Of a DNA stretch of 32,000 bases, positions 1 through 25,629 are shown piece after piece (position 1 is the stretch's first letter; every line of letters begins with the position of its first letter). Under the pieces are notes generated by a model that was given only the letters and a program-made list of their open reading frames with translations, searched no databases and was not told the origin of the DNA. Location: NCBI GenBank assembly GCA_963699255.1, contig OY969425.1:30001-62000 (forward strand), in the 5' to 3' direction. This DNA comes from an uncultured bacterium. Its GTDB lineage: Bacteria; Margulisbacteria; WOR-1; CAVSGV01. The translations under genes and the position numbers were made by a program.

Positions 1-12
1 TTTAAAAACCAG

Positions 13-40
13 TGAAATTTACGACGAAACCTGCCGATAT
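13..40 (+). promoter_or_regulatory. sigma28 (FliA/SigD)-class-like promoter upstream of the 107-4486 gene
   Basis: TGAAATTT (13-20), 12-nt spacer, GCCGATAT (33-40). Read as GAAA-N15-GCCGATAT it has the spacing and exact -10 of the B. subtilis SigD consensus TAAA-N15-GCCGATAT. It ends 66 nt before ATG 107. The same architecture recurs at 6632, 22494 and 22574. Confidence 0.5.
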
Positions 41-106
41 ATATATGTCGGAAATAAGGCCGAAAATCGACTTAACGCGGCCAAAATATATTAGGGGGAA
101 ATACAA

Positions 107-3100
107 ATGGGTGAGCAAGTAAGACTGGGAACGACCACGGATTATTATAGTCCGCAGCCGATAGATGTAGGGCACGATAAAGTAACCGGAGAAGAAATAT
201 ACAGGCAGAGAACTTACGCGAAATGCAGCGTGGGCAAACAGAGCAACCTGACATTGGATGCCGCGCTTGATGAGGTTGAATCAGAGAAGATAGATTATCT
301 GAATAAAAAACAGCCGTCACAGGCCTTTGGATGCATGATCCAGGCAGCCGGACTTTACGGGAACAGGGACGACATTGGCGACCGGAAAAAAGCATATTTA
401 TTGCTCCGCAAAATAATAGTCCTGGCAAGCAAAGATACGATAGAAAGAACGAAAAAGACCATTGCCTATGGCGTGCCGGGCGGAGAAATAACAACCGCTG
501 AATTTGCAACATTTGACCCTAAGTTTTTGAAAGATCCCCAGGTGCAGGAAGCCCAGGCGAAGATCGCTATAGCTGATCTGGTCCTGAAGCAGCTGAACGA
601 CAATGAGGTCCCGGATGTTAAGGTTGTAGACCCAAAGATCACAGACGCGACAGCCTACGCGATAAGCTGCTGCCAGTCCGCGAGAACCGCCCTTAACGCG
701 TTTAAATACAAAGACGATTTCAATATAAGCAAGAGCTACATACTAGAGGCAAAATTGATGGCTTTGAGTAAAGCATCGGATGACGATGTCCGCGCGAAAC
801 TTAAGTCAGCGCACATCGATTGGAACGCGATCAAAGACCGCGTTTCGGATGATCCGAATGTCAAAGATGAAAGCCTGAGGCCGGCCGGGATGAGCAAGGA
901 TGACTACATTGAAGAGATCAGGAAAGGCACCGTATACATCAATGCGTGGGCGATGGTTGAAGACGCGCATCTTACCGACCAGAAGGTGAACGTCAGCACG
1001 GAGGACATATCCGCGAAGATAGGTTTATGCAGTGATGCTCATGTAATGCTTTCCGGCAAGGACACGGACAACGGCATAGACAAGGCAAAGGATTATATTA
1101 ACCACGACGCGTTTTTAACAGAGGCGAACCTTACCGCGAAACTTGCCCGCCTTAACATTAATGATCCGGACAAATATAGGGGCGGCTTGAATGACGCAAG
1201 GGCCCTGTATAAAGAAATATCGGAGAAAACCGCGTTCAGTGATATAAAAGCTATCGCGATCGCAGCAAAAATATCCATCGATATGGAGCTTGGCGAATTC
1301 ACATGGGATGACGCGAAAAGTGCTTTAGAGGCTTATTTTGATCCAACAACCAGCACATTTCCCCTTAAATCCCCATTCGCTGAAAATTCATTCACATACC
1401 TGTCCATGGAGCTCCTGGAGGCCCAGCTGAGGAATACAACGCAAAGGAAGAAAGTGTGGGTCCCCGGCTGCGGCGATTGCACATATAAAACGAAGACCGA
1501 AGTTGCTGATTATACCCTCGCGGGGATAAGGACGGACAACGTGAAAAAGGCCATTAAAGCCAGATCAGTTAAGGCGGTCAGGGATCCGGAGGCGCTGAAC
1601 GACCTTAATATCAGGGCAAGTCTTGAACACGCCAGATCAACAGCTTTGGAAGGCATAGCGCTAAGGGACGATATCGCCAAAAGGGCGAAATTCAATGACG
1701 ACGCCATAAAAGAGCTTACGGATATCCTGGGCCCCACCGGCCTTAATGAAACCACGGACAATATATTGAACAATCTCGGCGGCAAGAGAAAAATGGAAAG
1801 CTCCTTCTATGTGACGCTGTGGGGGGAATGGGCGAATTACCTGGAGCAGATAGCGTGGCTGGACAGCAAGGATAAGCCGGGAGACATGAACATATTTAAA
1901 GCCGCCAATGACAAATACGATGAAACAATAAAGCTCTGCGGTTATTCAAAGGCCACATATGACAAAGGGGTAGCGGGGCAGGAAAGCGCCAGGAAGCAAA
2001 TGATAAAGCTTTCCAAGGACAACATTAAAAATTCCGTGGAGAATAATATTGAAGTTGCCGCGCTTACCAACCCGGACGCGCAAAAGGCGATAACCGCTTT
2101 GGATGGTGTTATCAAGAACATCGGCGACTTCAAGATACCGTCCGAGTTCAAAGGCACGCAGCTGGTAAAAATGCAGGCGGAATTGAACAGGAGAAAGCTG
2201 GAGATCCGCTGCAAAGAGGTGTTCTACATAAACAAACAGCCGACCAGCTACCTTTACACCAGCAGCAAGACGAACGCTCCGATCAGCGCGGATGACAAGA
2301 AAAAAGATGTCAGCGCGGATGACAAGATAAAAGATGTCAGCGCGGATGACAAGAAAAAAGATGTCAGCGCGGATGACAAGATAAAAGAGCTGTATCAGCA
2401 GATCAATGACCTGGCGGACAAAACGCTCCCGTACCTGGATACCCCGTATTATTCCATTTTGAACCTGTTCGGGGTGAATTCTGTTTACATGAGGATAAAT
2501 AAAGATGCGGCCGCGGACGAGATAGTCGCGCTGTACGGCAATTATATAAAGGGAAAGGATTTTGAAACAACTTACGACATGATAGACCCCCTTGCGAATG
2601 CCGCTTTAATAAGGACCGGCAGAATTAAAACAGCAAAGGGAGCCGACACAAATCTTAAGGGCGAGATAATGGATTATCTAACTACATTATTAACGGGATC
2701 CAAGACGACGGCTGCTGACAAGGCGAAAGCTTATGTCTGGAAAGCGCGCATGAATGTCTGGTTCAAGGATAGCCAGGATCTAAACCAAGCGTTGAAAGAT
2801 TATGACGAGGCGATCAAACTTTACGGCACTATTACGGACGGCAATAAGCTTTACGGGAACGGCGCGTCAAAACTGGCTGTAATGGAGGAGCGATCGTTCG
2901 CCCAGTTCATGCTCGTGAACGATACCAAGAAAGGCGACGCGAATGCGAAGGATAGAATCGGTCAATACCAGCAGATCGCCAAGTATATCAACGATAATAT
3001 CCTTAAGGGGGCCGCAACGACCGGCTTGAGCGAGGAGATCGCGAAGAAAGTGGATAAGCAGGACGCGGCGGCAAAAATAAAGGCGCGCCTCACCCTGATA

Positions 3101-4486
3101 TCCATGACCATGGGCATCGCCGAACCTCTGAAAAAGGGCCTCCTGGCGGATCCAGTGATGGTCACGGCGGTTACGGATATCTGCGGCGAGAACATCACGG
3201 ACGAGAACAAGCTTTTTGTCAAAACGGAAGAATTGTTCAATAGCGTTACAGCCGATATAAAAAAGCTTGGATTGATCGATACTGAGATGGTGAGCCTGGG
3301 GATAGATGTTCCCACTGTTTACGCGCGCATGGCCGAAAACTACATGATCCTGGCGTTAGAAGCCATGGTGCCTGGCAGAGATATTGATGATGCTGATGAT
3401 TTATTAGAAGACTTGAAGGACGAGAAAGCCTCAATGGAAAATACTAATACCAGCTCAATGCCGGCAAAACGACTCGAACGGTTCAATCAAAACATGAAAG
3501 CGATTTCAGACGCGATCCTTAAAGTAAGTTCCGCCCTGACTCAAGTTCAGAGCAAGAAGAACATTATTGCCCAGAACGCGCAAAAATACATCGAAAATAT
3601 GAACAACTATTTAACTAAAGCTGCAAGTATCGCGGAAAAGGACGCTAACAGCTTAGCGCAGGCTAAAGCCCTTCTTGTTCAGGCGCAATACGCAGGCTGG
3701 ACTGCGGGAAGTGATATTGACAAGTTAAAGGTAGCTCGAGGGTTATATGAAAAAGTCATCAGCATAAATCCCGTCGCTATGGATATGAAGGCGAAATTGG
3801 ACTATGCCGGCGTGATCTCGATCATATCGTTAAGGCTCCTGAAAACTGACAAAACAGCGGCGGCGGATGTAGCCAATATAGCCATAAGCAAATATAAAGA
3901 GGTAAAGACGAATGACGATATCGCTCTTGGCGCCAGGGCTTGCATAGAAATGGCGAATCTTCAAGCTGCGTTCGCAGTTGAAGATGGGACCAAGCTGAGG
4001 GAGGCGCGGGCAAGTGTCTACGACGCCCTTATAAAACTTACAGGATCGAAACAGGATACCATGGGATACATTAACCTGGTGAACGGCATGATCAACCTGA
4101 ATAAGCCCGTCGATAAAACAATAATACAAGCCCTCTGCTATCTTGGCGTGATCGAAGCCAGATTGTACACGTCAAAGACTAACCTGACGGAGCCGCAAAG
4201 ATTGGCGGGGTATAATGCGATAAAAGGGATTATGGGCGGGATCGGAACTGTTACCGGCGGCATATACGGTATTATCAAGCAGCAGAATCTGGAAGGTGAC
4301 GCCTCATTGAAAGTAGTTATGAAGCAATTTATGGATTTTAAGGCTGAGGTGGTGCTTGCCTGGGGAGATGCCGGAGGAGACGAGTCAACTGATGAATATA
4401 AACAGGCAAGCTACAAAACGTCTAACTATGATGCCAGGGTGCAAGAAGCCATAGAGAAATTAAAAAAATTAGAGGATATAAAATAG
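107..4486 (+). CDS. 1459-aa helical, TPR-like repeat protein of unknown function, no signal peptide
   Basis: ATG at 107 is preceded by AGGGGGA (93-99), followed by 4.4 kb of open frame. The protein is K/D/A/E-rich with recurring TPR-like signatures (KAYVWKARMNVWFKDSQDLNQALKDYDEAIKLYG; ANDKYDETIKLCG; ARGLYEKVISINP). It contains an internal SADDK(K/I)KDV x4 repeat and a C-terminal glycine-zipper GIMGGIGTVTGGIYGII. I recognise no family by eye. Confidence 0.85.
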   Translation: MGEQVRLGTTTDYYSPQPIDVGHDKVTGEEIYRQRTYAKCSVGKQSNLTLDAALDEVESEKIDYLNKKQPSQAFGCMIQAAGLYGNRDDIGDRKKAYLLLRKIIVLASKDTIERTKKTIAYGVPGGEITTAEFATFDPKFLKDPQVQEAQAKIAIADLVLKQLNDNEVPDVKVVDPKITDATAYAISCCQSARTALNAFKYKDDFNISKSYILEAKLMALSKASDDDVRAKLKSAHIDWNAIKDRVSDDPNVKDESLRPAGMSKDDYIEEIRKGTVYINAWAMVEDAHLTDQKVNVSTEDISAKIGLCSDAHVMLSGKDTDNGIDKAKDYINHDAFLTEANLTAKLARLNINDPDKYRGGLNDARALYKEISEKTAFSDIKAIAIAAKISIDMELGEFTWDDAKSALEAYFDPTTSTFPLKSPFAENSFTYLSMELLEAQLRNTTQRKKVWVPGCGDCTYKTKTEVADYTLAGIRTDNVKKAIKARSVKAVRDPEALNDLNIRASLEHARSTALEGIALRDDIAKRAKFNDDAIKELTDILGPTGLNETTDNILNNLGGKRKMESSFYVTLWGEWANYLEQIAWLDSKDKPGDMNIFKAANDKYDETIKLCGYSKATYDKGVAGQESARKQMIKLSKDNIKNSVENNIEVAALTNPDAQKAITALDGVIKNIGDFKIPSEFKGTQLVKMQAELNRRKLEIRCKEVFYINKQPTSYLYTSSKTNAPISADDKKKDVSADDKIKDVSADDKKKDVSADDKIKELYQQINDLADKTLPYLDTPYYSILNLFGVNSVYMRINKDAAADEIVALYGNYIKGKDFETTYDMIDPLANAALIRTGRIKTAKGADTNLKGEIMDYLTTLLTGSKTTAADKAKAYVWKARMNVWFKDSQDLNQALKDYDEAIKLYGTITDGNKLYGNGASKLAVMEERSFAQFMLVNDTKKGDANAKDRIGQYQQIAKYINDNILKGAATTGLSEEIAKKVDKQDAAAKIKARLTLISMTMGIAEPLKKGLLADPVMVTAVTDICGENITDENKLFVKTEELFNSVTADIKKLGLIDTEMVSLGIDVPTVYARMAENYMILALEAMVPGRDIDDADDLLEDLKDEKASMENTNTSSMPAKRLERFNQNMKAISDAILKVSSALTQVQSKKNIIAQNAQKYIENMNNYLTKAASIAEKDANSLAQAKALLVQAQYAGWTAGSDIDKLKVARGLYEKVISINPVAMDMKAKLDYAGVISIISLRLLKTDKTAAADVANIAISKYKEVKTNDDIALGARACIEMANLQAAFAVEDGTKLREARASVYDALIKLTGSKQDTMGYINLVNGMINLNKPVDKTIIQALCYLGVIEARLYTSKTNLTEPQRLAGYNAIKGIMGGIGTVTGGIYGIIKQQNLEGDASLKVVMKQFMDFKAEVVLAWGDAGGDESTDEYKQASYKTSNYDARVQEAIEKLKKLEDIK
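2285..2392 (+). repeat. In-frame tandem repeat, 27-bp unit x4 (equivalently 54 bp x2)
   Basis: agcgcggatgacaag(a/at)aaaa(a)gatgtc is repeated head to tail and encodes SADDKKKDV-SADDKIKDV-SADDKKKDV-SADDKIKEL. The first three units are exact apart from the alternating KKK/KIK codon. Confidence 0.95.
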
Positions 4487-4499
4487 GGGAGACGAAAAA

Positions 4500-6587
4500 A
4501 TGAGCTCAGCCGGTAGAATATCAGGTTCCATGTACCAGACGTTTTCTAGCGATTCCATCGCTCAGGATACCGTACACATACGCAACAATAAAATATCAAA
4601 GGAAGACCTGAAAAGGATAACGTCGCAGAAGGATGCGAACAGTAAAACAGTTTCTATCGTTTTCGATCAGAACGAAGTTGGCAAGAATGACCAGAGTCAA
4701 ACCCAGCCGCAGGGCCAGCAAACACAGACCCAGCCAAAGGATACGACAAACAATGTGACCAGGCAGCCGTTCGAGTTCCCCGGATGGAAAGATGCCGAGC
4801 AGCTAAAAAAATATCAAGAGATCGAAAATGACATTCTTTGCGCGGATATAAACTATTATAACGGCAACATACCGGAATTTCACAAATACAGCGATTGGGC
4901 TATAGGTAATGGATATAAAAAGGATTCACCGTCAGGAAAGCGGTTTTGGCCCCAATTCAGGGAAATATCGCTCTATACCAAACCGATCATCCAAGTGTCC
5001 AGTTATTGGTCCAAAAGCAATATCAGGCCGGAATTTGTGAATTTTATAGATGAGAATAATATGGGCGCGGATGGGAAGATGCTGACGGACGGGGTGAAGC
5101 AGCCCTGGGAAAAATACTCATACATTTATAATGCCGATAGTACTAAGATAATCAGGCCCGATTATAAATTAAGCGATGTTAAACAGCCGCAGAACGCGTT
5201 GACAACGCAGGTCTCATACATAATCCCGAATTTTGACTTTGAGGGCAAAGGTTTTAACACCAAAAATGCCAAAGACCGGATACTGGACCTTCAGGGGACC
5301 CTGATCGTGGACCTGCTCAAGACCGACTACAACGGGACCCTCAACACAGGGTTCAACTTATACTCTTTTATCAATCCCGATCATCCTGAATATACTCTGA
5401 ATTACCTGAAGAAACTTAACGGGAATGAATATACGGCATGCGAATTCGGGCCTGTTTATTCCCAGCATGTGTTATTCGGACTCGCCCAGCCTTTGTTCGG
5501 CACGCTTCCCGAAATGCCTCAAGCGATCCGCTGGCTGGTCCCTATTTTAGTGAACAAGCTGTCGGCAACATATGAGAACACACTGACGGAAATGAGCATG
5601 AGAGCTTTTCCGAATTACGCGTACAACGAATCGACAAAGAACCTGGCGAATTATATATACGATTATGCACACAATGAATCCACCAACATCCTGGCGCCGG
5701 AGGGAATTAAGGGACTTTTTGTCAGCGACCTCCAGTCTCTCACGCTTGGTTTTGAGTCTCGAACGCTGACGATGTTAAAGAACAAATGGCCGTATTCGAT
5801 ATATCCCGCCCTGATATTCAAGTATAAATTCTCCTGGCTTTCCAGCAACATGCCGGACCCGTATTATCTGTCCGAAAAGTATTATGTCCCGCCTTTTTAT
5901 GATAAGGACGTTAAGCTTACCCAGGCCCAGAGGGACACCATAATGAACGATTATGTCAATAATTACCTGCCGGAGAGAAGTGAAAATAAGGGACTTACCG
6001 CCAACGAGATGACTCTCGGCGCGAGGGTGAATTTCCCGGGCTTTGCGCAGCTCCTTACCGGCATGGGGATCCTGAGCATCCCTGACGGAGGGGCCGACCA
6101 GACAAAGACCCTTTTTCAGTACACCATCACCGGTTATGATCCGATACGGAACACGGGGGGGAACGGGCTTTCCCCGGCATATCTGAACCACTTCGCGGAG
6201 TATCATCTGGATGAGTCCGGCAACCTTGTGAAGGTGGGCAGCAACTATCACGCGCCGATAGAGCCGTATAAAGGGCATTCATGGCGTTTTTCACTGGACA
6301 ACAATATCAGACTGAGCAAGGGCCCCGATCTGGATGATAAGGGAAATGACATAACCACAGGGATCTACATGCCTGTTGGATTCAGCATAGGCGGAGGCAG
6401 CTACACGGTGGGTGGAGTTAAGAAGCACTCGTCCGAGTGGAGCTTCAATATAGGACTGGGCATAACGGACCAGGCGACCTTAAGATACACCATATCCAAG
6501 AACAACAACGGGTATGATTATGATGAGGCCGTTCAATCCTTGACGTTCACATGGATGTTCGACGAACCGAAGAAACATAAGAAATGA
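4500..6587 (+). CDS. 695-aa hypothetical protein, beta-rich and aromatic/Asn/Gly-rich, no Sec signal peptide, disordered Q/T-rich N-terminus
   Basis: ATG is 14 nt after the upstream stop, with a GGGGAG RBS (4486-4491). The N-terminus MSSAGRISGSMYQTFSSDSIAQDT has no hydrophobic h-region. A QSQTQPQGQQTQTQP low-complexity tract follows. The C-terminal third shows alternating hydrophobic patterns (SEWSFNIGLGITDQATLRYTIS, SLTFTWMF). Confidence 0.85.
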   Translation: MSSAGRISGSMYQTFSSDSIAQDTVHIRNNKISKEDLKRITSQKDANSKTVSIVFDQNEVGKNDQSQTQPQGQQTQTQPKDTTNNVTRQPFEFPGWKDAEQLKKYQEIENDILCADINYYNGNIPEFHKYSDWAIGNGYKKDSPSGKRFWPQFREISLYTKPIIQVSSYWSKSNIRPEFVNFIDENNMGADGKMLTDGVKQPWEKYSYIYNADSTKIIRPDYKLSDVKQPQNALTTQVSYIIPNFDFEGKGFNTKNAKDRILDLQGTLIVDLLKTDYNGTLNTGFNLYSFINPDHPEYTLNYLKKLNGNEYTACEFGPVYSQHVLFGLAQPLFGTLPEMPQAIRWLVPILVNKLSATYENTLTEMSMRAFPNYAYNESTKNLANYIYDYAHNESTNILAPEGIKGLFVSDLQSLTLGFESRTLTMLKNKWPYSIYPALIFKYKFSWLSSNMPDPYYLSEKYYVPPFYDKDVKLTQAQRDTIMNDYVNNYLPERSENKGLTANEMTLGARVNFPGFAQLLTGMGILSIPDGGADQTKTLFQYTITGYDPIRNTGGNGLSPAYLNHFAEYHLDESGNLVKVGSNYHAPIEPYKGHSWRFSLDNNIRLSKGPDLDDKGNDITTGIYMPVGFSIGGGSYTVGGVKKHSSEWSFNIGLGITDQATLRYTISKNNNGYDYDEAVQSLTFTWMFDEPKKHKK

Positions 6588-6631
6588 GCCGCGCTTTAAG
6601 GATTTTCCCGTCCAGAAAAATCATTAAAAAC

Positions 6632-6659
6632 TGAAATTCTTCATAAGATCCGACGATAA
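6632..6659 (+). promoter_or_regulatory. sigma28-class-like promoter upstream of the 6722-8527 gene
   Basis: TGAAATTC (6632-6639), 12-nt spacer, GACGATAA (6652-6659). It ends 62 nt before ATG 6722 and lies in the 134-nt intergenic gap. Confidence 0.45.
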
Positions 6660-6721
6660 TATAGTATAGGGAAAAAGCGTCTTTCGGGCTTGAGCGTAGC
6701 ATATAAGGAGATAAACAGTAT

Positions 6722-8527
6722 ATGGACCCTATTAATAGTATATCGAATAATTCCCTGTTATATCAGCAGAGCGATACGACCTCCTCGGCGCAGGATACAA
6801 CAAAAAAGGCAAAGGTCAAGGTCGTGCCTCAGCCAAACCCCCATCCCCAAATTGACGCGTTCAACAAACCGGTGTTCGGGACCGGGGACATTTATTTTGT
6901 CGACAAAATCGAATGGCAGCCTTTCGGGAACGAAGTGTGGAACATAAAGGATTTCGGGAACGGGAACGATCTTGTCAATAAGAGCTCTGTCGGGCTCGGG
7001 TTGGGCGCGAACCTGACAATTCCCAGCATCGGACTTCTCAATGCTTTATCGGTGAATTATGATAACGCCGATTACACGTACGGAGGGGGCGACGCCGGGA
7101 ACAACAGGAACTTCAGCTTAAACTTGCAGACGCTGATCCCCGAAAAAAAATATCTCGATAAGGTCTTTCCATCAATAAGCGGCGACCCGCTGTTCAAGGG
7201 CAAGGAATGGTACCAGCAGCCGGCAGAAGCGCTCAGGATGTTGTGGAGATGGCCGTCCTACCTGAAAGATCAAGTGGATGGTCTTTCGGACGGCTGGAAG
7301 GCGGTCGGCATGCTTGCGGACATTCCGCTGACCGTATTAAAATTTGCCGCCGAGGATATCCCGAATTCGCTCATCGGCGGGCAGGTAAGATATTCATTCA
7401 TTGATAACAGCGAGAGGGATATCCCGAACTTTTATGATCCGTCCGTGAAAGCCGCGGGCATTAACTTGAACGCGTACTGGGCCCTGGGCAATTCTTCTTT
7501 TATAACGACTTCATACGAGCGCAGGCTGGGCACAAAGGAGTACACGCTTGGGCTTCCGCACAGGTCCGACGACAGGAACTGGGCGGTCCGCTTTGACGCG
7601 CCGAACATTCTGGATGAGAACTGGGGACTTTCTTTCCTGAGGCTCCATCCGTGGGCGGAGTTCAGGAAAGGACGGGATCAGCTGCAGATATCCTCCAGCT
7701 CCACTGTCACAACAACGGAAACGGACCCGATAACCCTGGTGGAATCAGACACGACGAATAATGTGTCCGGCAGGGCGGCCGAAATACAGATCGCGTATTC
7801 AAAGCTCAGCGGCGGGGTCAACATGTATCTCTTTGATAACAGGCTGGAGGCGGGAGTGGCACTTTCAAAAGAGACGCGCCAGATGCAGAAGGACAGGCAG
7901 ACCACCGAATATCATCTGACCTACGGGCCGGCGACCTTGAAATACTCGCAGATCCAGAACCCGATAATGTTCTACCATATGAACACGAACCTGCCGGAAG
8001 AACAGAACAGGTTCGAATTTGAATTCGATCCAAGGTACTACACTGGCAGTGCCGGGCAGTTCATTCCCAGCGTGGTCATCGGCTATGAGAAAACATGGGT
8101 GGATAACGGCGGTTTGCGTACCATTAAGGACAATTTCCCGTATTTCGGCATAAAGTTCTCATTGAGGCTGTCCGGCAGGAAGCAAAAACAGGCGGTATGC
8201 AACTACGGCAATGAACAGTTCATTAACGCTTCGGACGTTACTAACATCATGGGGAACAATAAATACACCTCGGACAGGTATCTTACGTATAAGATCGTGC
8301 AGAACTTGAAGATCGATCATGAAAAAGCACTGAAGACATGCATCTACAACATGTTGCCGAACGCCGATGATATAACAAAAGCCAAGGACAAGGAAAGAGC
8401 GAAATTAGATGACTACATAAAGGACTTCAAAACAATAGTCAGGCAGAAAGGCCTTGCTTCTGATGAGGCGACAGCAAAGAAAACCGAGATAGATAAGTAC
8501 ATAAAGGAGCTGTCAACTACCAAATGA
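6722..8527 (+). CDS. 601-aa hypothetical protein, beta-rich core with a Lys-rich helical C-terminal tail, no Sec signal peptide
   Basis: AAGGAG RBS at 6704-6709. The N-terminus MDPINSISNNSLLYQQSDTTSSAQDT resembles that of the preceding protein. Porin-like alternating segments are present (SVGLGLGANLTIPSIG, YFGIKFSLRL). The C-terminal ~90 aa are K/D/E-rich and helical. Confidence 0.85.
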   Translation: MDPINSISNNSLLYQQSDTTSSAQDTTKKAKVKVVPQPNPHPQIDAFNKPVFGTGDIYFVDKIEWQPFGNEVWNIKDFGNGNDLVNKSSVGLGLGANLTIPSIGLLNALSVNYDNADYTYGGGDAGNNRNFSLNLQTLIPEKKYLDKVFPSISGDPLFKGKEWYQQPAEALRMLWRWPSYLKDQVDGLSDGWKAVGMLADIPLTVLKFAAEDIPNSLIGGQVRYSFIDNSERDIPNFYDPSVKAAGINLNAYWALGNSSFITTSYERRLGTKEYTLGLPHRSDDRNWAVRFDAPNILDENWGLSFLRLHPWAEFRKGRDQLQISSSSTVTTTETDPITLVESDTTNNVSGRAAEIQIAYSKLSGGVNMYLFDNRLEAGVALSKETRQMQKDRQTTEYHLTYGPATLKYSQIQNPIMFYHMNTNLPEEQNRFEFEFDPRYYTGSAGQFIPSVVIGYEKTWVDNGGLRTIKDNFPYFGIKFSLRLSGRKQKQAVCNYGNEQFINASDVTNIMGNNKYTSDRYLTYKIVQNLKIDHEKALKTCIYNMLPNADDITKAKDKERAKLDDYIKDFKTIVRQKGLASDEATAKKTEIDKYIKELSTTK

Positions 8528-8566
8528 TGTTAGAAAAAGTAAGGGGTGTAAAAGGGGGAATAAGAT

Positions 8567-9418
8567 ATGCCTATTAGCGCATTATCATCGGACTCAACAA
8601 GCACGGTAAAGCCGGTTATTTTAAATAATAATTTAGCAAAATCTGATTCGACAAAGACGGATTCAACGTACGTCATGCCGCTGGTCTACCCTGACGGCAC
8701 TTTCAACCAGAAACCGGCTAAAGGGAAAAAAGAGGCAAATACCTGGGGGATAACTCCTCTCATTACCGAGGATCAGAACAGGAATGGCGGCACTGTAGGG
8801 GCTAATGTGGATCTCTGGCGCTTGATGTCGAAGGACGATAAGGGCACTTTTGACTTCGGCGTTGAGAACAGGATGGGCAAGGATCTCAGCACCAATAAGA
8901 ACATGTTGAGCAAAGATCTTAATGTATACGCATATATTGATCCGGGCGTGTGCAAGATCGGGACGTTCAATAGGAACCTGAAATTCCTTGGCGAGCTTCA
9001 GATAAGGCCGACCGTGGACCTGAATTACGGCTATAACTCAGAGTTCAAAACGAACAGACTTGATGGTTTCGGGTCGTTCGCAATGGGGCTTAATAAACCG
9101 TTCCAGTCCGACAAGTTCAAACTTGTCAATTACTTTGGCTTTACTGTGGCTTATTCCGGAAGCGCCGCGCTGAGCGGAAAAAAGATGGATGTTCTCCTGG
9201 GAAATTATGAGGATAACGGGGAGGCGGCGGACAGGGAATTATCGGTGAAAACAGAGATACGGTTCGCGCCGAAACCGGGTTCAAGTATCTTTGATTTCGC
9301 GGACATATATATGAAGAACAATCTTGGGAGGGACCCCTTCAATCCGTATCTTACTTCGAGAGAGAAATTCAGGCTCGGGGGGTATCTTCAGCGTCGACAG
9401 GAGCAGGTTTATCCTTGA
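8567..9418 (+). CDS. Fragment 1 of a frameshifted ~646-aa hypothetical beta-rich protein (whole gene 8567-10507)
   Basis: GGGGGA RBS at 8553-8558. The N-terminus is MPISALSSDSTST, with no signal peptide. The frame is lost at the G6 run 9377-9382, and sensible sequence continues in the next frame (..REKFRLGG|IFSVDRSRFILDVEAYK..). Confidence 0.75.
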   Translation: MPISALSSDSTSTVKPVILNNNLAKSDSTKTDSTYVMPLVYPDGTFNQKPAKGKKEANTWGITPLITEDQNRNGGTVGANVDLWRLMSKDDKGTFDFGVENRMGKDLSTNKNMLSKDLNVYAYIDPGVCKIGTFNRNLKFLGELQIRPTVDLNYGYNSEFKTNRLDGFGSFAMGLNKPFQSDKFKLVNYFGFTVAYSGSAALSGKKMDVLLGNYEDNGEAADRELSVKTEIRFAPKPGSSIFDFADIYMKNNLGRDPFNPYLTSREKFRLGGYLQRRQEQVYP

Positions 9419-9947
9419 CGTGGAGGCTTATAAGGCGCCTTCATATTATGCGGGTGATCCTTACAGCAAGAAGCTTGACCTGGATGCGTTCCTCAGATAT
9501 CAAATAGTTAATTGGGATAATAAGAAGAGCGGAGAGAACAGGAGATCCGTGGTCATTACCGGGGATGTGTCCTCGACCGGTATCTTCGGATGGTTGAACA
9601 AGGGATATCCATTTTCGCCCATTCTTTTGGAGCTTACCGCGAATATCGACCTTGGCTGGGGCCATATCAATGGATCATATCAACATATATTTAAAAGCAA
9701 ACATGTGAACGATGGACCGGTAGAGCTGATCCAACCGGGGCTTCAGACCGTGACAGCCCAATGGAACGGCATCTCGGTGGATATGTCCGGCGGGCCGTAC
9801 CAGACCACGAAAGAGGTAAGTCTTACAGCGGAGAAAATCTATGCGGATCCTAACTCCAAGCCGCAGATCACCATAAATGCGGGTAATGTGGATTATCAGA
9901 TAAGAGCCTTAGGACGGGGCCGGATGCGATCGGTGAAAATGCTCTGA
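9324..9947 (+). CDS. Fragment 2 of the same frameshifted gene (genuinely coding about 9379-9916)
   Basis: The protein-like sequence YYAGDPYSKKLDLDAFLRYQIVNWDNKK...ITINAGNVDYQIRALG joins fragment 1 at the G6 run. It leaves the frame at the G4 run 9916-9919. Confidence 0.7.
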   Translation: MGGTPSIRILLRERNSGSGGIFSVDRSRFILDVEAYKAPSYYAGDPYSKKLDLDAFLRYQIVNWDNKKSGENRRSVVITGDVSSTGIFGWLNKGYPFSPILLELTANIDLGWGHINGSYQHIFKSKHVNDGPVELIQPGLQTVTAQWNGISVDMSGGPYQTTKEVSLTAEKIYADPNSKPQITINAGNVDYQIRALGRGRMRSVKML

Positions 9948-10159
9948 CCACGTGGCAGGACGGCGGATCGGCTCCTGTTAAACTATATGTAAGGAGCGTA
10001 AAGCTTATTGACAATGCCCATAACCGTATCTGGGGCCTTAATTCTGCCGGAAAATGGGTACCGCTTTCAGGGGCTCAGCCTACAACGTCGCCGGAAATCC
10101 TGCCGGAATCGAAATTTAATCTCTCCGGCGGATCGCGAACATTCACTTTTCCGGCGGAT

Positions 10160-10507
10160 ATGTGGTCAAGCCTCTTAAGCGATGGAACAAGAAGTTTTAC
10201 CGTGAAAGTGGAATACGGCGCTGATATTTCAAAGCTTCCCCCAGATATAAATGCTCTTAAAAAATACACCTCGGGGAGCAACAGAGTATTGGTCTGGGAT
10301 CCAGATCAAGGTGTCGGGTATGTGCATGATAATTACGTTAGGTGGGACGCTCAAGGCGGATGGGCAGCGTATCATTATGATGACATCAACAGGATCGTAG
10401 TTGATCCGTATGACCCGGCGCAACCGAACGATCCTAATACGAACCCGTATTATGTCGGGCTCATGAAACTGTCGACGATATTCCTTGGAACTACATTGCA
10501 GTATTAA
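10160..10507 (+). CDS. Fragment 3 of the same frameshifted gene (this frame is open from 9887; continuation begins about 9917)
   Basis: My hand translation upstream of Met 10160 gives GPDAIGENALTTWQDGGSAPVKLYVRSVKLIDNAHNRIWGLNSAGKWVPLSGAQ..TFTFPADMWSS. This continues fragment 2 if one G is added at 9916-9919. Confidence 0.7.
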   Translation: MWSSLLSDGTRSFTVKVEYGADISKLPPDINALKKYTSGSNRVLVWDPDQGVGYVHDNYVRWDAQGGWAAYHYDDINRIVVDPYDPAQPNDPNTNPYYVGLMKLSTIFLGTTLQY

Positions 10508-10512
10508 AAGGC

Positions 10513-10528
10513 CCGCAATCGATTGCGG
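10513..10528 (+). terminator. Perfect 16-nt palindrome/hairpin 6 nt after the stop at 10507
   Basis: ccgcaatcgattgcgg is fully self-complementary. No T-tract follows, so terminator function is uncertain. Confidence 0.3.
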
Positions 10529-10633
10529 TGCCTCAGGAATAGGAGTAAAATATACATATATATGTAAAGGCCGGAAATGAAGGAAAACCGCGGGTAACCT
10601 GCCCTTGGCGGGTTTTTGGTCAGGAAGGATAAT

Positions 10634-11053
10634 ATGCGCATAAAAAATTTATTGATAGGGTTAATGACGGTAATGCTGACGGCGATGCTGTCATCTGCCG
10701 CGTTCGCGGTGCTGGATCCCGCGTCAGGCACTTCAACCCCGAACGGTGATTTTATTTTTGTCCCCAACCAGACGAACACCGCGTCGATAGAGGTAGTAAG
10801 GACGTCCGATGATGCTGCGGTGCAGGCGATCAACGTTGCAAGCGGAACCCCGGCCAGCATGGCGACTTCCCCGGACGGAAAAACCCTTTTTGTCGTCGTT
10901 GCCGGAGCTACAGGAAGCAGGGTAAGGGCCTACAGCATAGGTTCCACAGAGCCTTACTTCTTTATCCTATACGGTACTGAGCTCCACCTACACCGCAGGA
11001 AGGCAGTGCGCCATCACCCCCGACGGAAAATACCTTTATGTGGCGAACTATGA
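10634..11053 (+). CDS. N-terminal fragment of the giant surface protein: signal peptide plus first YVTN beta-propeller blades
   Basis: ATG 10634 is preceded by AGGAAGG (10622-10628); the ORF track starts at TTG 10616. MRIKNLLIGLMTVMLTAMLSSAAFA is a classic Sec signal. SPDGKTLFVV is a YVTN-type repeat motif. After about 10955 the frame becomes implausible (..FFILYGTELHLHRRKAVRHHPRRK) while the giant ORF frame reads ..CAITPDGKYLYVANY. Confidence 0.75.
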   Translation: MRIKNLLIGLMTVMLTAMLSSAAFAVLDPASGTSTPNGDFIFVPNQTNTASIEVVRTSDDAAVQAINVASGTPASMATSPDGKTLFVVVAGATGSRVRAYSIGSTEPYFFILYGTELHLHRRKAVRHHPRRKIPLCGEL

Positions 11054-14000
11054 TGATTCATTCGCGGGCGCAGGCAGGAGGGTTTACATACTTGATGTTT
11101 CAAATCCTTCAGCAATGACCGTTGCGGGCAGTTTCCAGGTCGCCGCTTCGGATTCCACGGTCAACCTCTGGGGAATAGCCATAAAACCGGACGGCACAAG
11201 GCTTTATGTGGGAGACAGGTACAACTACTACGGTTATTACAAGGTGTGCGTCTACAACATAGCGGGTGCGAACAGAACAAGTCCCCAGCATGTTACGGAC
11301 ATAAACCTTGGCACGACCAAGAACCCGACCTATCTTGCCGTGAATACGGACGGGAACAGGTTATTCGTGAAAGTGGATGAGACAGCGGATCCGGGCGACG
11401 GCGCCAGAAAAGACGTTGAAATGTACGATATTTCAGGCCCCACGCCTGTGCTTATGGCGGAGGTTTATAAGATAACGGGAAATAATTACAGAAGCTACCT
11501 TCCCGGGGACCATCTTCCAACCGGCAACGATCTGGACACGAGGAACGGCAGCGAGGGTATGGCATTAAGCCCCAACGGCTGGTTCATGTATTTTTCAAAT
11601 TTTAACGGGCCTTCCGGCGACGGGAGCCTTTACTATCGGGATACTTTATACGGCTCTTCGATCGCTAATTTAACGAACGGTTTTGACAGGACAAATCCGG
11701 GGGACATCTGGGTAAGCTGGGGCGGATGCACACAGGAGTCCCCGGCCATCTGGAGCGGATGGCATTCTTCCGACGGCATCATCGCCACAAGAAACAATAA
11801 AGTTTATTTTACTTACAGCGATGTAAGCGTGACCCCGGAATATCTCAGCGTGCCGACGACGACCGACGCGAATATTCCCCCGACAGCGCCGAAAATAACC
11901 TATCCTCTGCCGCAAGCTACTAATGTTTCCGGTTTCATTACCTGGGAGCCTTCGCTGGATGACGGCATCGGTCCTCACGGATTAACATACACCGTTGAAA
12001 CCATAGAAGCTTCGACTCTGGAAGGCGGAACAACCGCCTGGAATCACATGGCTTACACCGCGACGGGCGAGGTATATACGCCTCTTATCGGAGTCAAGCC
12101 CGGCGGAACGTATTATGCCAGAGTGCAGGCTTTTGACGGCACATATACCAGCCCATGGTCCTATACGGGGCCGTTCACCATGGATGCCAATTTCCTTTTG
12201 CCACCCACATGGGAGAGCTCTTATCTGATCACATCCAGAGAAGCGGTGATCGACTGGGCAAGTGTTGCGGCGGCCGACAGTTACATTATCCAGTATAGGA
12301 TAACAGGCGAAGCGACCTGGCACAGCACGTCTGCTATAGCAAGCACATACAGGTATAATTCGACAGATCCAAATCCGAACTATAGGCTTACGAACCTTAC
12401 TCCGAGCGCGACCTATGAGGTGAATTTAATCGCGGTTAGGAGCGGGGTCAAAAGCGTCCCGTCTTCAAAGCCTTATGTTTCTTTCTACACGCTGGAAGAG
12501 CCGTGGGTGAGCCACGCCAGGGTCACGTCGACAGAGGCATATATATTGTGGGGACCTGAGGTAAGCACATTGGAGCTGAATGTTCCGAACGCTGTCAATT
12601 ATGAATGCTGGTACAGGATACAGAATGCGCCTGTGGACTGGACAAGAGTCACATGGCCTTCCGGAAAGCAGGACAGTACAACAATGACAGTGTTGAACGC
12701 CAAGCTGAGCGGCTTAACGGCGTCCACCACATATGAGGTCAGGATGAGGACCGTAGATGCATATGGCGGGCGCTCTCTCTGGTCGCCAATTCATGATGTG
12801 TACACGATGGAGCGGCCGTGGGTGAGCCACGCAAAGGTCACATCAACAGAGGCGTATATATTGTGGGGACCCGAAGAAAGCACTTCTTTTAATATACCCA
12901 ATGCCGCCAGCTATCAATATCAGTATATGAAGAAAACGGATACCTCATGGACCACCGGTCCCGAGCCTCTCAGCAAGAGAGACGATGGAACTATGCCCGT
13001 ATTGAATTTTAAGCTGAGCAATTTAACGGCGTCAACCACATATGAAGTTCAGATGAGAGCGTTGGATGTCTATGGCCGCACTTCCGACTGGTCAGCGACG
13101 GATGAAGTGTATACTCTTGAGAGCCCGTGGGTGAGCCACGCCAAGACGTCAACGAACGAATCGTACATATTGTGGGGTTCCTCGACGAGCTTTGAAGTTA
13201 GGAACGCCACTACCTACGAAGCAAGAGCCAGAATAACATCCAGCGCTTCGTGGGATGCGGTCCCGATCAAAGGGGTGCCTCGATATAATCGCGATGACGG
13301 CACCATGTCGCCGACGTTAAACATCAAATTAAGCTCGTTGCTCGGATTTACTCCGATAGTAAACACTACATATGAGGTCAGGATGAGGGCGAGAAATGCC
13401 GGCGGAGCATCTGACTGGTCCGCCACAAATGAAGTGTATGTGCTGGGGACCCCGTGGGTAAGCGCCGCGAAGGTCACATCGAAAGAGGCGTATATATTGT
13501 GGGGGCCGGTAGGCGAGACCGGGCTGGATGTGACCGGAGCTACAAGTTATCAGTGCTGGTACAGGGTGCAGAATGCGCCTGTGGACTGGACAAAGGTCAC
13601 ATGGCCTGTCGGCAAGCAGGACGATAGGACAATGGCAACGTTGAACGCCAAGCTGAGCGGCTTAACGGCGTCCACCACATATGAGGTCCAGATGAGGGCG
13701 GTTGGATCAGGAGGATACTCTGACTGGTCGCCTATCTATGATGTGTTCACATTTGAGCGGCCCTGGGTGAATCATGCGAACGTCAAAGCGACAGAAGCAT
13801 ACATATTATGGGGGCCTGAAGAAAGCGCTTCTCTTAATATACCCAATGCCGCCAGCTATGTGTATCAATACAGGAAGCCGGCGGATACTTCATGGACCAG
13901 CGGTCCCGAGCCTCTAAGCAAGCAGGACGATGGGACCATGCCCGTGTTGAATTTTAAGTTAACGGGCTTGACGGCGTTGACCACATATGAAGTTCAGATG

Positions 14001-17000
14001 AAAGCGCTGGATTCTATCGGCCGCAGCTCAGACTGGTCCGCCACAAACGAGGTGTTCACACTTGAGTGCCCGTGGGTGAGCCACGCCAAGACGTCAACGA
14101 ACGAAGCGTACATATTATGGGGTTCCACGACGAGCTTTGAAGTGATAAACGCCACGACCTACGAAGCCAAAGCCAGAATAGCATCCAGCGCTTCGTGGGC
14201 TTCCATACCGTCGATAGGGGTTCCGCGATATAACCGCGATGATGCCACCATGTCTCCTACGCTGAACATCAAACTAAGCAAGCTGCTTGGTTATGCTCCG
14301 ACTACCGGCGTTACCTATGAGGTAATAATGAGGGCGGATGGACCGGGAGGATACTCCGACTGGTCGGCCACACATGAGGTGTTCATGCTTGAGAGTCCAT
14401 GGGTGGGGCACGCCAAGGTGGCGACCAATGAGGCGATAATATTGTGGGGCGCCACGACCAGTTTCGAGGTTCAAGGGGCTACTAGCTATCAGGCTATGGC
14501 ATGCGCCAAGAACGGGGCATGGCAGCCGATAGTGAGCGTGCCTAACTTTAATATCGATGATGGGACCATAAGCCCGACGGCTACAAGTATGTTCAATATC
14601 AAATTAAGCAAGTTGCTCGGATCAGCTCCGACACTGAACACTACTTATGAAGTAATGATGAGAGCGGTCGGATCCGCGGGTTACTCCGACTGGTCAGCCA
14701 CTCATGAGGTATATATATTGGGGGCCCCATGGGTAAGCCACGCTAATGTTACAGCAACGCAGGAATATGTGTTATGGGGTCCGATAGGCCAAAGCGGCTT
14801 GAATGTGACCGGCGCGGTAAGTTATGAATATCAATACAAGAGAAAGATAGATACTTCATGGATCGGCGGCTCCGAGCCTCTCAGCAAGAGAGATAATATT
14901 TTGATGAGTTGCTTGAACTTCAGGTTGACCGGTTTGACGGCGTCAACCACATATGATGTTCAGGTGAGGTCGGTCGGGACATACGGTCGCTCCGACTGGT
15001 CTGCCACAGATGAAGTGTACACTCTTGAAAGCCCGTGGGTGAGCTACGCTAACATAACAACAAATGAAGCATCCATATTGTGGGGTTCAACGTCGAGCTT
15101 TGAAGTGATAAATGCGGCAACATATGAAGCTAAAGCCAGGATACAGGGCGGCGCTTCGTGGGATACCATCTCGTCCATAGGTGTGCCGCGATATAACCGC
15201 GATGATCCAACTATGGCTCCAACATTGAACATAAAATTAAGCAAGCTGCTCGGAATTGCTCCGACATCGGGCGTTACTTATGAAGTAATTATGAGAGCGG
15301 ATAATGCCGGCGGAGTTTCAGACTGGTCAGCCACAGCTGAGGTGTTCATGATAGGGACCCCGTGGGTAAGCCACGCGAAGGTTTCGTCTAAGGAAGCTTA
15401 TGTGTTGTGGGGACCGATAGGTCAAAGCGGTCTGGATGTGACCGGAGCCTCATCTTATGAATGCCGATACAGGATAAAGGGAGCGCAGGTGCCGTGGACA
15501 ACGAAGATCGAGCCTCTCGGCAAGCAGGACGATCCGACAATGCCTGTATTGAACTTCGAGCTTAGCAATTTAACGCCGTCCACAACATATCAGATCCAGA
15601 TGAGGGCGGATGGAACAGGAGGGAACTCCGGCTGGTCGGCAACAGATGAGGTGTATACTCTGGAGACCCCGTGGGTGAACCATGCGAACGTCAAAAAGAC
15701 AGAAGCATACATAATATGGGGATCGATAAGCGGAGGGTTGGACGTTCCCAACGCCGCCTATTACAAATATCAATACAAGAAGCTGTCGTCCGCGGTATGG
15801 ATGAGCGGTACTCAGCCTCTCGGCATGAAAGACGATCCATCAATGGCCGTGTTGAACTTCAGGCTGGCTGGATTAACGGCATCGACCTCGTATGAGGTCC
15901 AGATGAAGGCGGTAGACGCCCTCGGCGGCGAATCCGACTGGTCGGCCATTGATTATTTCATAACGATACAAGGCCCGTGGTGGATAGATGTAAGCCATGT
16001 AACCGGAACATCCGCTCTTATTTCCTGGGATAATACGGCTCCGGGAGTGACACAGTATGATCTTAGGTACAGCACGGCCCCGTCGGCGGAACTCGGGACA
16101 GCGGTCCTTACTACGGATGCCCAGCTTGCCGTCACCGGTCTTAGTACGAATACACAGTATTACGCGAAAGTGAGGGCGATAACCGCTGCCGGCCCGAGCA
16201 GCTGGACGAGTGTTGCGCCCTTCTTTACAAATCCTGTTGTAGGCCCGTCATGGATAGCTGCTTTCAATACGACAACAACAGCAACAATGGTCACGTGGGA
16301 AGGTGTATCCGGCGCAACATCGTATGAAGTGAATTACGGGATAAATACCATGCCCATGGTGTGGACTTCCTGGGCTCCGTCGCCGCAGGATCAGAATTAC
16401 GGCGGTCCTATTACAGGATTGAACCCGAGGACATGGTATAACCTGAGGGTCAAGCTGCACAGCGGCGCAAGCGCAAGCGAGTGGTCACCCACGGCGTTAT
16501 TTTATACGATACCCGCTCCGACCGGTGTTACACAGATAGGCTCCACCGTGACCACAGCGACCATTACATGGGAGCCCGTGGACATGGGCGGAGGAACGCC
16601 CGCACCCGCTTACGAGATAAGCTGGGGCGTGGATGCTACTGCTTCCGGAAGCGGTGATGCCGTAACGGGCAACATTAATTATACTATGACAGGATTAACG
16701 ACCGGCTTAACATATTATGTGACGGTCAGGGCACGCGAGAGCTCCAATCCTTCCGATGGATACAGCGATTGGTCCCCGTATCCGGCACTGCAGGTAGTGG
16801 CATCGGGAACCATGGGTCCTGTCGCTCCAGCGTGGTCAAGCCATTACCTGGTCACTTCGAATGAGGCGGTGGTGAACTGGGGAAGCGTTGCACTGGCGGA
16901 CCATTATATCGTGCAATATAAGAAATTGACCGATGCGACCTGGGCCAGCGTAGAGGTGCTAAGCACATATCAATACAATACAGCCGATACGAACCCGAAT

Positions 17001-19754: not shown

Positions 19755-19779
19755 TTTTATAAACGGGAGGAAGATTTTT

Positions 19780-22252: not shown

Positions 22253-22493
22253 AAATGAACAGCCATGATACTAAAAGTTTGTCAACATTTTAATGGTTTT
22301 TCCCGTCCAATCTGTGGGGCTTCCGCTATTCTTTCATGTGATCGAACATCTCGAACGCGCGATATTTACATGTACATATATATACATAACAGACTTGATA
22401 TCAGGATCGCGGGCTCTGGAAGCGCGAAAAGAATTTGATGGAAAATCGTCCGCCGGAGGCGGGCGGTACCTTACCGGTAATTTTGGTGAAAAG

Positions 22494-22521
22494 TGAAATT
22501 TATCCAGCGATCGGTCGATAA
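22494..22521 (+). promoter_or_regulatory. Distal sigma28-class-like promoter copy upstream of the PorV-like/SLH gene
   Basis: TGAAATTT (22494-22501), 12-nt spacer, GTCGATAA (22514-22521). It lies exactly 80 bp upstream of the proximal copy and shares the 11-mer AAGTGAAATTT with it. Confidence 0.4.
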
Positions 22522-22573
22522 TAATAAGAGAGGAACTGACAGGATTGATCGGTCAGGGAAATTAAAGAAGAAG

Positions 22574-22601
22574 TGAAATTTAAAGTGGATTTTAACGATA
22601 T
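22574..22601 (+). promoter_or_regulatory. Proximal sigma28-class-like promoter upstream of the PorV-like/SLH gene
   Basis: TGAAATTT (22574-22581), 12-nt spacer, AACGATAT (22594-22601). It ends 62 nt before ATG 22664. It shares the exact AGTGAAATTT-N15-GATATATATAT with the site at 11-46. Confidence 0.5.
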
Positions 22602-22663
22602 ATATATAGAGGGAAAGGATATAAGAGGATCAATATATCAGGCGATCAGGGGGAGAAATTCAA

Positions 22664-25320: not shown

Positions 25321-25354
25321 TTGACAAAATATACCCAATACCTGTATGGTGTAT
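25321..25354 (+). promoter_or_regulatory. Sigma70-like promoter with an overlapping imperfect palindrome (candidate autoregulatory operator)
   Basis: TTGACA (25321-25326), 18-nt spacer, TATGGT (25345-25350). The 24-nt palindrome ATACCCAATACC|TGTATGGTGTAT (25331-25354) pairs at 9 of 12 positions. The ATG at 25369 has no obvious SD, so the leader would be very short. Confidence 0.4.
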
Positions 25355-25368
25355 CATAGCGTATAAAT

Positions 25369-25629
25369 ATGGCTAATACAGGCAGGGAAGAAATAATAAA
25401 TCGGCTTAACCGCATAAAAGGGCAGGTGGAGGGGATACTGCGCATGGTGGACCGTCCGAAGCCCGCGGTAGAGATATTCCATCAGATCACGGCGGCCAGG
25501 AAGGCCCTTGATTCAACGGGGAGACTGCTGCTGGAGAATTATATCCAGGAAAATTTAAGCGGTGTATCAAGGTCAAAAGGGGATAGCGATAAGATCAGGG
25601 AAATACTCGAAATAATGGAGAAGTTCTAA
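25369..25629 (+). CDS. CsoR/RcnR-fold (DUF156) transcriptional repressor, non-canonical (no Cys/His ligand set)
   Basis: The 86-aa protein has the family signature INRLNRIKGQVEGILRMV....I.HQITAARKAL...LLENY. The usual ligand positions read Ala (PAVEIF, normally Y-C-I-D) and Tyr/Asn (LLENYIQENL, normally H..HC). Confidence 0.75.
   Translation: MANTGREEIINRLNRIKGQVEGILRMVDRPKPAVEIFHQITAARKALDSTGRLLLENYIQENLSGVSRSKGDSDKIREILEIMEKF

Follow-up and report, generated by a model that had tools for sequence, protein, structure and literature searches.

The question raised by this locus is which sigma factor serves four copies of a two-part motif that stand in front of its genes. The DNA analysed (the window) is a stretch of 32,000 nucleotides of a 1,770,855-bp contig from an uncultured WOR-1 bacterium of the Margulisbacteria. 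A sequence-only reading of the window had taken the four copies for sigma-28-type promoters, and their coordinates, plus-strand orientation and sequences are all reproduced here. The pattern TGAAATTY-N14-CGATAW has 4 matches in the window, against 0.00 expected from 100 dinucleotide-preserving shuffles, and the looser form GAAA-N17-CGATAW returns the same four sites against 0.23 expected. A weight matrix built from 195 sites of other genomes gives the four sites 26 to 42 bits, with the next best position of the window at 8.2. All four are intergenic and directed towards the downstream gene. As that reading had also noticed, sites 1 and 4 have AGTGAAATTT and GATATATATAT in common, 15 nt apart, and the motif ends 66 nt before the ATG at 107 (site 1), 62 nt before that at 6722 (site 2) and 62 nt before that at 22664 (site 4). 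The leader from sites 3 and 4 to the ATG shows no unusual fold (z = -0.04), and an Rfam search of the window leaders returns no known family. Tandem promoter copies 76 to 80 bp apart occur at window sites 3 and 4 (22494-22521 and 22574-22601) and in L088, L098 and L117, heading four unrelated genes in four genomes. The features are collected in Table 1.

Table 1. Motif sites, predicted transcription starts, transcription units and genes of the window, with the small-RNA loci of other genomes
Feature	Position	Strand	Description
Site 1	11..47	+	ORF1-ORF2 promoter; AGTGAAATTT (-35) 11-20; TG 32-33; CGATAT (-10) 35-40; 42.5 bits
Site 1, predicted +1	G47	+	T before it; leader 60 nt; +1 inferred from the 195-site logo
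Site 2	6630..6666	+	Promoter of ORF3 and following genes; -35 CTGAAATTC; -10 CGATAA 6654-6659; 25.9 bits
Site 2, predicted +1	A6666	+	Leader 56 nt
Site 3	22492..22528	+	Upstream half of tandem pair; AGTGAAATTT; CGATAA 22516-22521; 33.0 bits
Site 3, predicted +1	near G22528	+	136-nt leader runs through site 4
Site 4	22572..22608	+	Proximal promoter of PorV-SLH gene; AGTGAAATTT; CGATAT 22596-22601; 41.3 bits
Site 4, predicted +1	A22608	+	Leader 56 nt
Transcription unit 1	107..6587	+	ORF1 and ORF2; syntenic in L147 and L148
ORF1	107-4486	+	1459 aa, helical
ORF2	4500-6587	+	695 aa
Transcription unit 2	6722..22179	+	ORF3 to TIG protein; extent inferred
ORF3	6722-8527	+	601 aa
Gene split into three ORFs	8567-10507	+	One 641-aa gene in L148
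Giant FN3 protein	10616-19754	+	Split in window; single ORF in L147 and L148
TIG protein	19735-22179	+	C-terminal T9SS-type sorting domain
Transcription unit 3	22664..25252	+	862-aa outer-membrane protein
Small-RNA loci			L010, L012, L019, L027, L032, L033, L051, L066, L068, L073 (two copies), L080, L083, L094, L096, L097, L105; none in window

ORF1, ORF2 and ORF3 have no Pfam or NCBIfam family match and no signal peptide. The 862-aa protein of the third unit carries a signal peptide and is built of a PorV/PorQ-family barrel (101 bits to NF033709, cut-off 90), one Ig-like domain and five SLH domains (E = 1e-65). The earlier description of this protein as an outer-membrane barrel with an SLH anchor holds for both components, with the order corrected to an N-terminal PorV/PorQ-family barrel followed by the five SLH domains, presumably the reverse of the classic OmpM-type SLH-porin. 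The TIG protein at the end of the second unit closes with a sorting domain of T9SS type A (30.7 bits to TIGR04183, cut-off 23). Reviews describe the T9SS as confined to the Bacteroidota/FCB group, and a literature search for a T9SS in Margulisbacteria found no mention of one. A gene ending in such a C-terminal domain (CTD) followed by a PorV-SLH gene is a gene order seen in the window and in several Margulisbacteria metagenome-assembled genomes (MAGs; L081, L017, L048, L052, L099 and L006).

Hairpins at 10508-10620 may cause partial termination of the second unit. The other genes of the window encode a CsoR-like repressor, a PQQ-propeller protein, ThiC, an AIR-synthase-like protein, an M20 peptidase and a NUDIX protein. 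The gene of the CsoR/RcnR-type metal-sensing repressor (25370-25629, within the region 25321-25629) has a TTGACA box at 25321 and no copy of the motif. Compared with L001, a contig assembled from short reads of the same organism, the window carries two extra bases, at 26502 and 26505, which split the 711-aa PQQ-propeller gene; the apparent frameshifts at this place, in 8567-10507 and in 10616-19754 are probably assembly indels.

Orthologues of ORF1, ORF3 and the PorV-SLH gene in other genomes retain the motif upstream. A search of 5.8 billion proteins gives only two homologues of ORF3; both are encoded on JGI metagenome contigs that are syntenic with positions 1-20000 of the window, and their identities are 46% (L147) and 58% (L148). 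Both orthologues are preceded by CTGAAATTC...CGATAATAATA, at 9887 in L147 and 2162 in L148, as at site 2, and the position orthologous to site 1 before the ORF1-like gene of L147 reads AAGTGAAATTT-N12-GCCGATAA. PorV-SLH orthologues with 37 to 41% identity are present in at least 9 loci; the motif precedes 7 of 9 close ones, often overlapping the stop codon of the preceding gene, and the remaining two appear to be cotranscribed with the preceding gene. The ThiC of the window shows 59% identity to that in L085. By these homologies the bacterium of the window groups with the motif-bearing genomes. An exact look-up of ORF1 and a protein-pattern search of the species genomes gave no match, and look-ups of other window proteins led only to short Logan contigs from the same organism.

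The spread of the motif was followed with the pattern AGTGAAATTT-N14-CGATAWWWATA, which fits sites 1, 3 and 4, in 185,579 species genomes (one per species). This pattern carries 39 bits, and the chance matches are estimated at a few, perhaps up to about 15 given AT-rich genomes. At least 119 loci carry the extended motif. Among the 119 loci listed, 80 are labelled Candidatus Margulisiibacteriota, Saganbacteria or WOR-1 and 32 are unnamed MAGs, so that 112 belong to these two groups; the 7 from other taxa are Stygiolobus, Anaerococcus (three), Bacteroidota, Flavobacteriales and Dehalococcoidia. The Saganbacteria MAG JABMQY01 accounts for at least about 21 perfect (20-position) matches among the loci listed, and the relaxed motif occurs outside the selected sites roughly once per 27 kb. 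Use of the motif is phylum-wide in the Margulisbacteria; it marks the entire phylum and is not a feature local to the window. The literature searched on gene regulation in Margulisbacteria makes no mention of promoters or sigma factors.

The 195 sites share a logo that reads A (-36), S (-35), TGAAATTT, YY, then AAA (-20 to -18), T (-15), G (-14), any base, CGATAW (-12 to -7), ATATAT, T (-1) and A or G (+1). The spacing is rigid: behind 314 unselected copies of TGAAATT, CGA stands at exactly +22 in 65 cases and CGATA in 39, compared with no more than 9 cases at any other of the tested offsets from +18 to +27. The -35 box is near all-or-none, as unselected CGATAW sites comprise 22 with a perfect TGAAATTT and 10 with one mismatch, mostly in the last T. 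In 76 unselected sites anchored on CGA only, the next base is T in 70% and the one after it A in 83%. Transcription had been expected to begin 6 to 9 nt past CGATAW, and the logo agrees, placing +1, a purine behind a T, 7 nt downstream. Most start codons lie 19 to 55 nt past CGATAW. Around 13 genes without a Shine-Dalgarno sequence start 6 to 10 nt past the box; they would be leaderless, because their start codons lie at the predicted +1 or within a few nucleotides of it. Only 6 of 174 sites (3%) lie deep within an open frame of 200 aa, compared with 66% of random positions.

At least 17 loci present the motif, then 60 to 73 nt, then an intrinsic terminator, and these are small-RNA genes. The RNAs are of two types, type A with an invariant CAUACC (CATACC in the DNA) and a conserved TCGAA and type B with CUUAUUUGGUU. 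The terminator loop GCCUGU (GCCTGT) is invariant in both types and its stem covaries, with compensatory changes at 6 pairs in 11 sequences. An Rfam search of the small RNAs gives no family match.

These observations bear on whether the motif is a promoter at all. Two conserved boxes at a fixed distance could also be produced by a dimeric regulator, and a repeated element or transcription-factor binding site was considered on this ground. The two boxes, however, are unrelated in sequence and occur in a single orientation towards the gene; they keep a fixed distance to leaderless start codons and are followed by a pyrimidine-purine start signal, and the stand-alone small-RNA genes consist of motif, RNA and terminator. 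A mobile repeat is contradicted by flanks and spacers that are not conserved. This explanation was rejected on account of the leaderless starts, the small-RNA genes and the 3% versus 66% in open frames, and it can be given hardly any weight. The housekeeping (group 1) promoter of the phylum, written as GTGAAA-N18-GATAAT and comparable to the unusual primary promoter of Bacteroidota, is a very improbable reading as well. The motif is frequent, and sites 2 and 3 reach 9/12 in a generic sigma-70 scan, but in that frame position -7 is mostly A and not T, and ribosomal and other core genes are absent among the best sites. The tRNA genes decide against it: those in the motif loci carry the canonical TTGACT-N17-TATAAT (L023) or clear TATAAT boxes (L005 and others), which differ from the motif, and the housekeeping reading was rejected for this reason. 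The motif is a promoter, and not the housekeeping one. Because tRNA genes of the same genomes use the canonical TTGACT-N17-TATAAT, it is the promoter of an alternative sigma factor, and the original proposal of alternative-sigma promoters heading three separate transcription units in the window stands.

In the proposed mechanism, RNA polymerase with a single alternative sigma factor would read the -35 box (A)(G/C)TGAAATTT at -36 to -27, and behind a fixed spacer the extended -10 element TGnCGATAW at -15 to -7 would be recognized. Transcription would start 7 nt downstream at a purine with a T before it. The window would be transcribed as three units: ORF1-ORF2, ORF3 to the giant surface proteins, and the PorV-SLH protein with its two tandem promoters.

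The genes counted downstream of the motif encode 6 FGE-sulfatase-domain proteins, 6 Ser/Thr kinases, 3 GGDEF proteins and 6 PorV-SLH proteins, together with PKD proteins; glycogen synthase, phosphorylase, phosphofructokinase and rpoN are also among them, and many have no family match. The phylum-wide regulon would comprise PorV-SLH barrels, surface proteins with PKD or FN3 domains, Ser/Thr kinases and lineage-specific proteins that lack a signal peptide, as well as FGE-sulfatase-domain proteins, diguanylate cyclases, glycogen enzymes and the small-RNA family. Many downstream proteins in loci L004 to L121 lack a signal peptide and have N-termini rich in Ser, Thr, Gly, Arg and Pro, often starting with MS; ORF1 to ORF3 of the window are similar to them. 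A protein of 61 to 63 aa (YDVASISxPGKxKRxN...GQFVKVFADMFLRKE) is conserved behind perfect-consensus promoters in five MAGs (L028, L029, L045, L060 and L101), and in L045 and L101 a 72-aa ORF comes after its gene. Pfam and NCBIfam searches give this family no match, and the same search, which included a 73-aa protein in L058, returns no FlgM or anti-sigma factor; a role of the 61- to 63-aa protein as regulator or anti-sigma factor is only a guess. In L023, at 291-318, a weaker copy of the motif (TGAAATTT...CGAAAA) stands 20 nt upstream of rpoN (sigma-54) and overlaps a canonical tRNA-Met promoter on the opposite strand.

A flagellar connection was looked for in several ways. None of 152 downstream genes (93 plus 59) encodes a flagellar, flagellin, chemotaxis, FlgM or sigma domain. 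In searches with phmmer and jackhmmer, with SigD and SigW of B. subtilis and FliA, RpoE, RpoD and FliC of E. coli as queries, no flagellin is found in about 880 kb of flanking DNA, and no sigma-70-family gene in 935 kb of flanking DNA, which samples only the surroundings of the sites and holds no positive control for this search. Metagenomes scanned for copies of the motif ahead of a flagellin N-terminus (codon pattern for DDA[AS]G), with leaders of 18 to 48 nt, give no genuine case: of the 24 matches, 21 are copies of a single coding-sequence coincidence from a gut bacterium and 2 are further coincidences, and the last is a flagellin array (L140), in which the supposed motif is C-terminal coding sequence of the preceding flagellin. 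The literature on flagella, sigma factors and T9SS in Margulisbacteria yields only two passing mentions, of flagellins and FlgV homologues in some members (PMC7018530, PMC11607428). Since some Margulisbacteria have these proteins, a FliA gene may exist in the phylum.

The assignment to the sigma-28 class, made in the sequence-only reading, survives in the -10 half and the spacing. The core CGATA(A/T) at about -12 to -7, present at all four window sites, is the core of GCCGATAA. The spacing GAAA-N15-nnCGATAW holds at all sites, with no tolerance of +1 or -1, and equals that of sigma-28. TG at -15/-14 occurs in 79 of the 195 sites (41%, compared with about 6% expected), with T at -15 in 66% and G at -14 in 54%. 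A TG ahead of the -10 box presupposes that the factor has a region 3, and ECF factors have none. FliA sites from E. coli ChIP-seq, 50 in number, show G at -14 in 43, T at -15 in 26 and TG in 25, and one bound site reads TGAAATTG-N11-GCCGATAA (PMC4183435, Table 2). No flagellar link appears (0 of 152 genes), the -35 box has G as its first base or reads TGAAAT, and the C at -13 is found in 22% of the 195 sites compared with 80% in the E. coli FliA sites. The box TGAAATTT has 6 of 8 positions identical to TAAAGTTT with a 12-nt spacer, or can be read as GAAATTTy, which leaves the canonical 11-nt spacer. For E. coli FliA a matrix was derived from the 25 strongest sites, with weak genuine sites kept out for comparison. 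It gives the Margulisbacteria sites a median of 11.6 bits and the left-out weak E. coli sites 12.0, and a fraction of 3.7e-5 of the background reaches at least 11.6. The score comes mostly from the -10 half, the -35 half lying only in the top 2% of the background, and the test is partly circular because the sites had been selected for CGA.

An ECF (group 4) factor reading these promoters, as in an envelope-stress regulon, accounts for several features. The geometry TGAAAT-N16-CGAT is that of the B. subtilis sigma-W promoter, TGAAAC-N16-CGTA, with exactly 16 nt and no tolerance between TGAAAT and CGA; the -35 box is very stringent (the 22 perfect 8-mers against 10 one-mismatch copies in the unselected set) and is followed by a T-tract, as in GGAACTT. 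Some ECF -10 boxes are CGAT, such as that of M. tuberculosis SigD. PorV-SLH barrels, surface proteins and small RNAs with perfect-consensus promoters are among the targets, and E. coli sigma-E controls outer-membrane proteins and their biogenesis genes together with the small RNAs MicA and RybB. The details of the boxes point elsewhere: the AAC core of the -35 is absent (GAAAT), the -10 is CGA(T) instead of CGT or GTC, the T-A-W behind CGA is conserved, and the region reading the TG at -15/-14 is missing from ECF factors. ECF genes are usually autoregulated, but no sigma/anti-sigma operon lies at about 190 sites and no sigma-70-family gene within 8 kb of them (about 39 assemblies, sampled around the sites), and the regulon takes in glycogen metabolism, kinases and cyclases. 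An ECF factor is considered unlikely on balance. A similarly low probability falls to another lineage-specific sigma factor, neither a FliA orthologue nor ECF, for instance a group-3 stress or stationary-phase factor with a sigma-32-like -35 box (TTGAAA) and a -10 box of its own, acting as a global second sigma. It would suit the large mixed regulon of ORFans, signalling proteins, glycogen synthase, phosphorylase, phosphofructokinase, rpoN and small RNAs and the density of sites (at least about 21 perfect matches in one MAG, about one relaxed motif per 27 kb), and GTGAAA resembles the sigma-32 -35 box. Chaperone and protease genes, however, are absent among the targets, the -10 box fits sigma-28 far better than CCCCATNT or GGGTAT, and the 935 kb around the sites hold no candidate factor. 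From promoter sequence, a sigma-28-related group-3 factor (FliA/SigD/WhiG) uncoupled from flagella is given about an even chance of being the cognate factor and is favoured over an ECF factor.

The sequence-only interpretation is partly supported: the motif is an alternative-sigma promoter of the Margulisbacteria with a sigma-28-like code and a large nonflagellar regulon, the probable identity of the factor being read from its putative binding sites. A wider proposal, possible rather than probable, is that the Margulisbacteria, the sister phylum of the Cyanobacteria, possess a phylum-wide second transcription programme. It would be run by a sigma-28-derived factor without a flagellar tie, and the genes under this factor, numerous and fast-evolving, would encode surface and lineage-specific proteins, among them a T9SS-like PorV barrel with CTD-bearing cargo, proteins of c-di-GMP and kinase signalling and of glycogen metabolism, and also a small-RNA family not described before, in which the CAUACC seed and the GCCUGU terminator loop are invariant. 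The near-invariant promoter allows the whole regulon to be read directly from metagenome-assembled genomes and points to coexpressed uncharacterized proteins and small RNAs, while the predicted transcription starts can be checked with metatranscriptomes. In addition, unlabelled MAGs can be recognized by the motif as members of the phylum. If the sigma-28-derived programme is real, it is a natural example of a sigma-28-like recognition code put to nonflagellar use, with a promoter strict enough to serve as taxonomic barcode and regulon finder in metagenomes.

Among known systems, the Bacteroidota consensus of the primary sigma factor (TTTG and TAnnTTTG) is comparable as a promoter that marks a whole phylum. 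The Bacteroidota signature belongs to the housekeeping sigma factor, whereas housekeeping promoters in Margulisbacteria are canonical and the signature is that of the alternative factor. The promoters of sigma-W and sigma-E share TGAAA(T/C), the rigid 16-nt spacer, a -10 box starting with CG and envelope and small-RNA targets; the Margulisbacteria promoter lacks AAC and CGT, its conserved -10 box is longer and has an upstream TG, and no site shows an autoregulated sigma/anti-sigma operon. The sigma-28 promoters of FliA and SigD, TAAAGTTT-N11-GCCGATAA in E. coli and TAAA-N15-GCCGATAT in B. subtilis, resemble the motif in CGATA(A/T), TG or G at -15/-14, the T-rich second half of the -35 box, the spacing and the stringency. 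They differ from it in the first base of the -35 box, which is G in the motif and T or A in sigma-28 promoters (alternatively, the motif has TGAAAT and a spacer one base longer), and in the regulon, which in Margulisbacteria is far more extensive and made up mostly of lineage-specific genes, without flagellar or chemotaxis targets being found. Its size and mixed content are atypical of sigma-28. In Chlamydia, sigma-28 serves late genes such as hctB, and in Streptomyces WhiG serves sporulation genes, both nonmotility uses in lineages or contexts without flagella. These two systems are a model for an uncoupled sigma-28, flagellar targets not being universal in the family. Both have small regulons and a TAAA -35 box, in contrast to the Margulisbacteria, which likely have many tens of sites per genome and add small RNAs.
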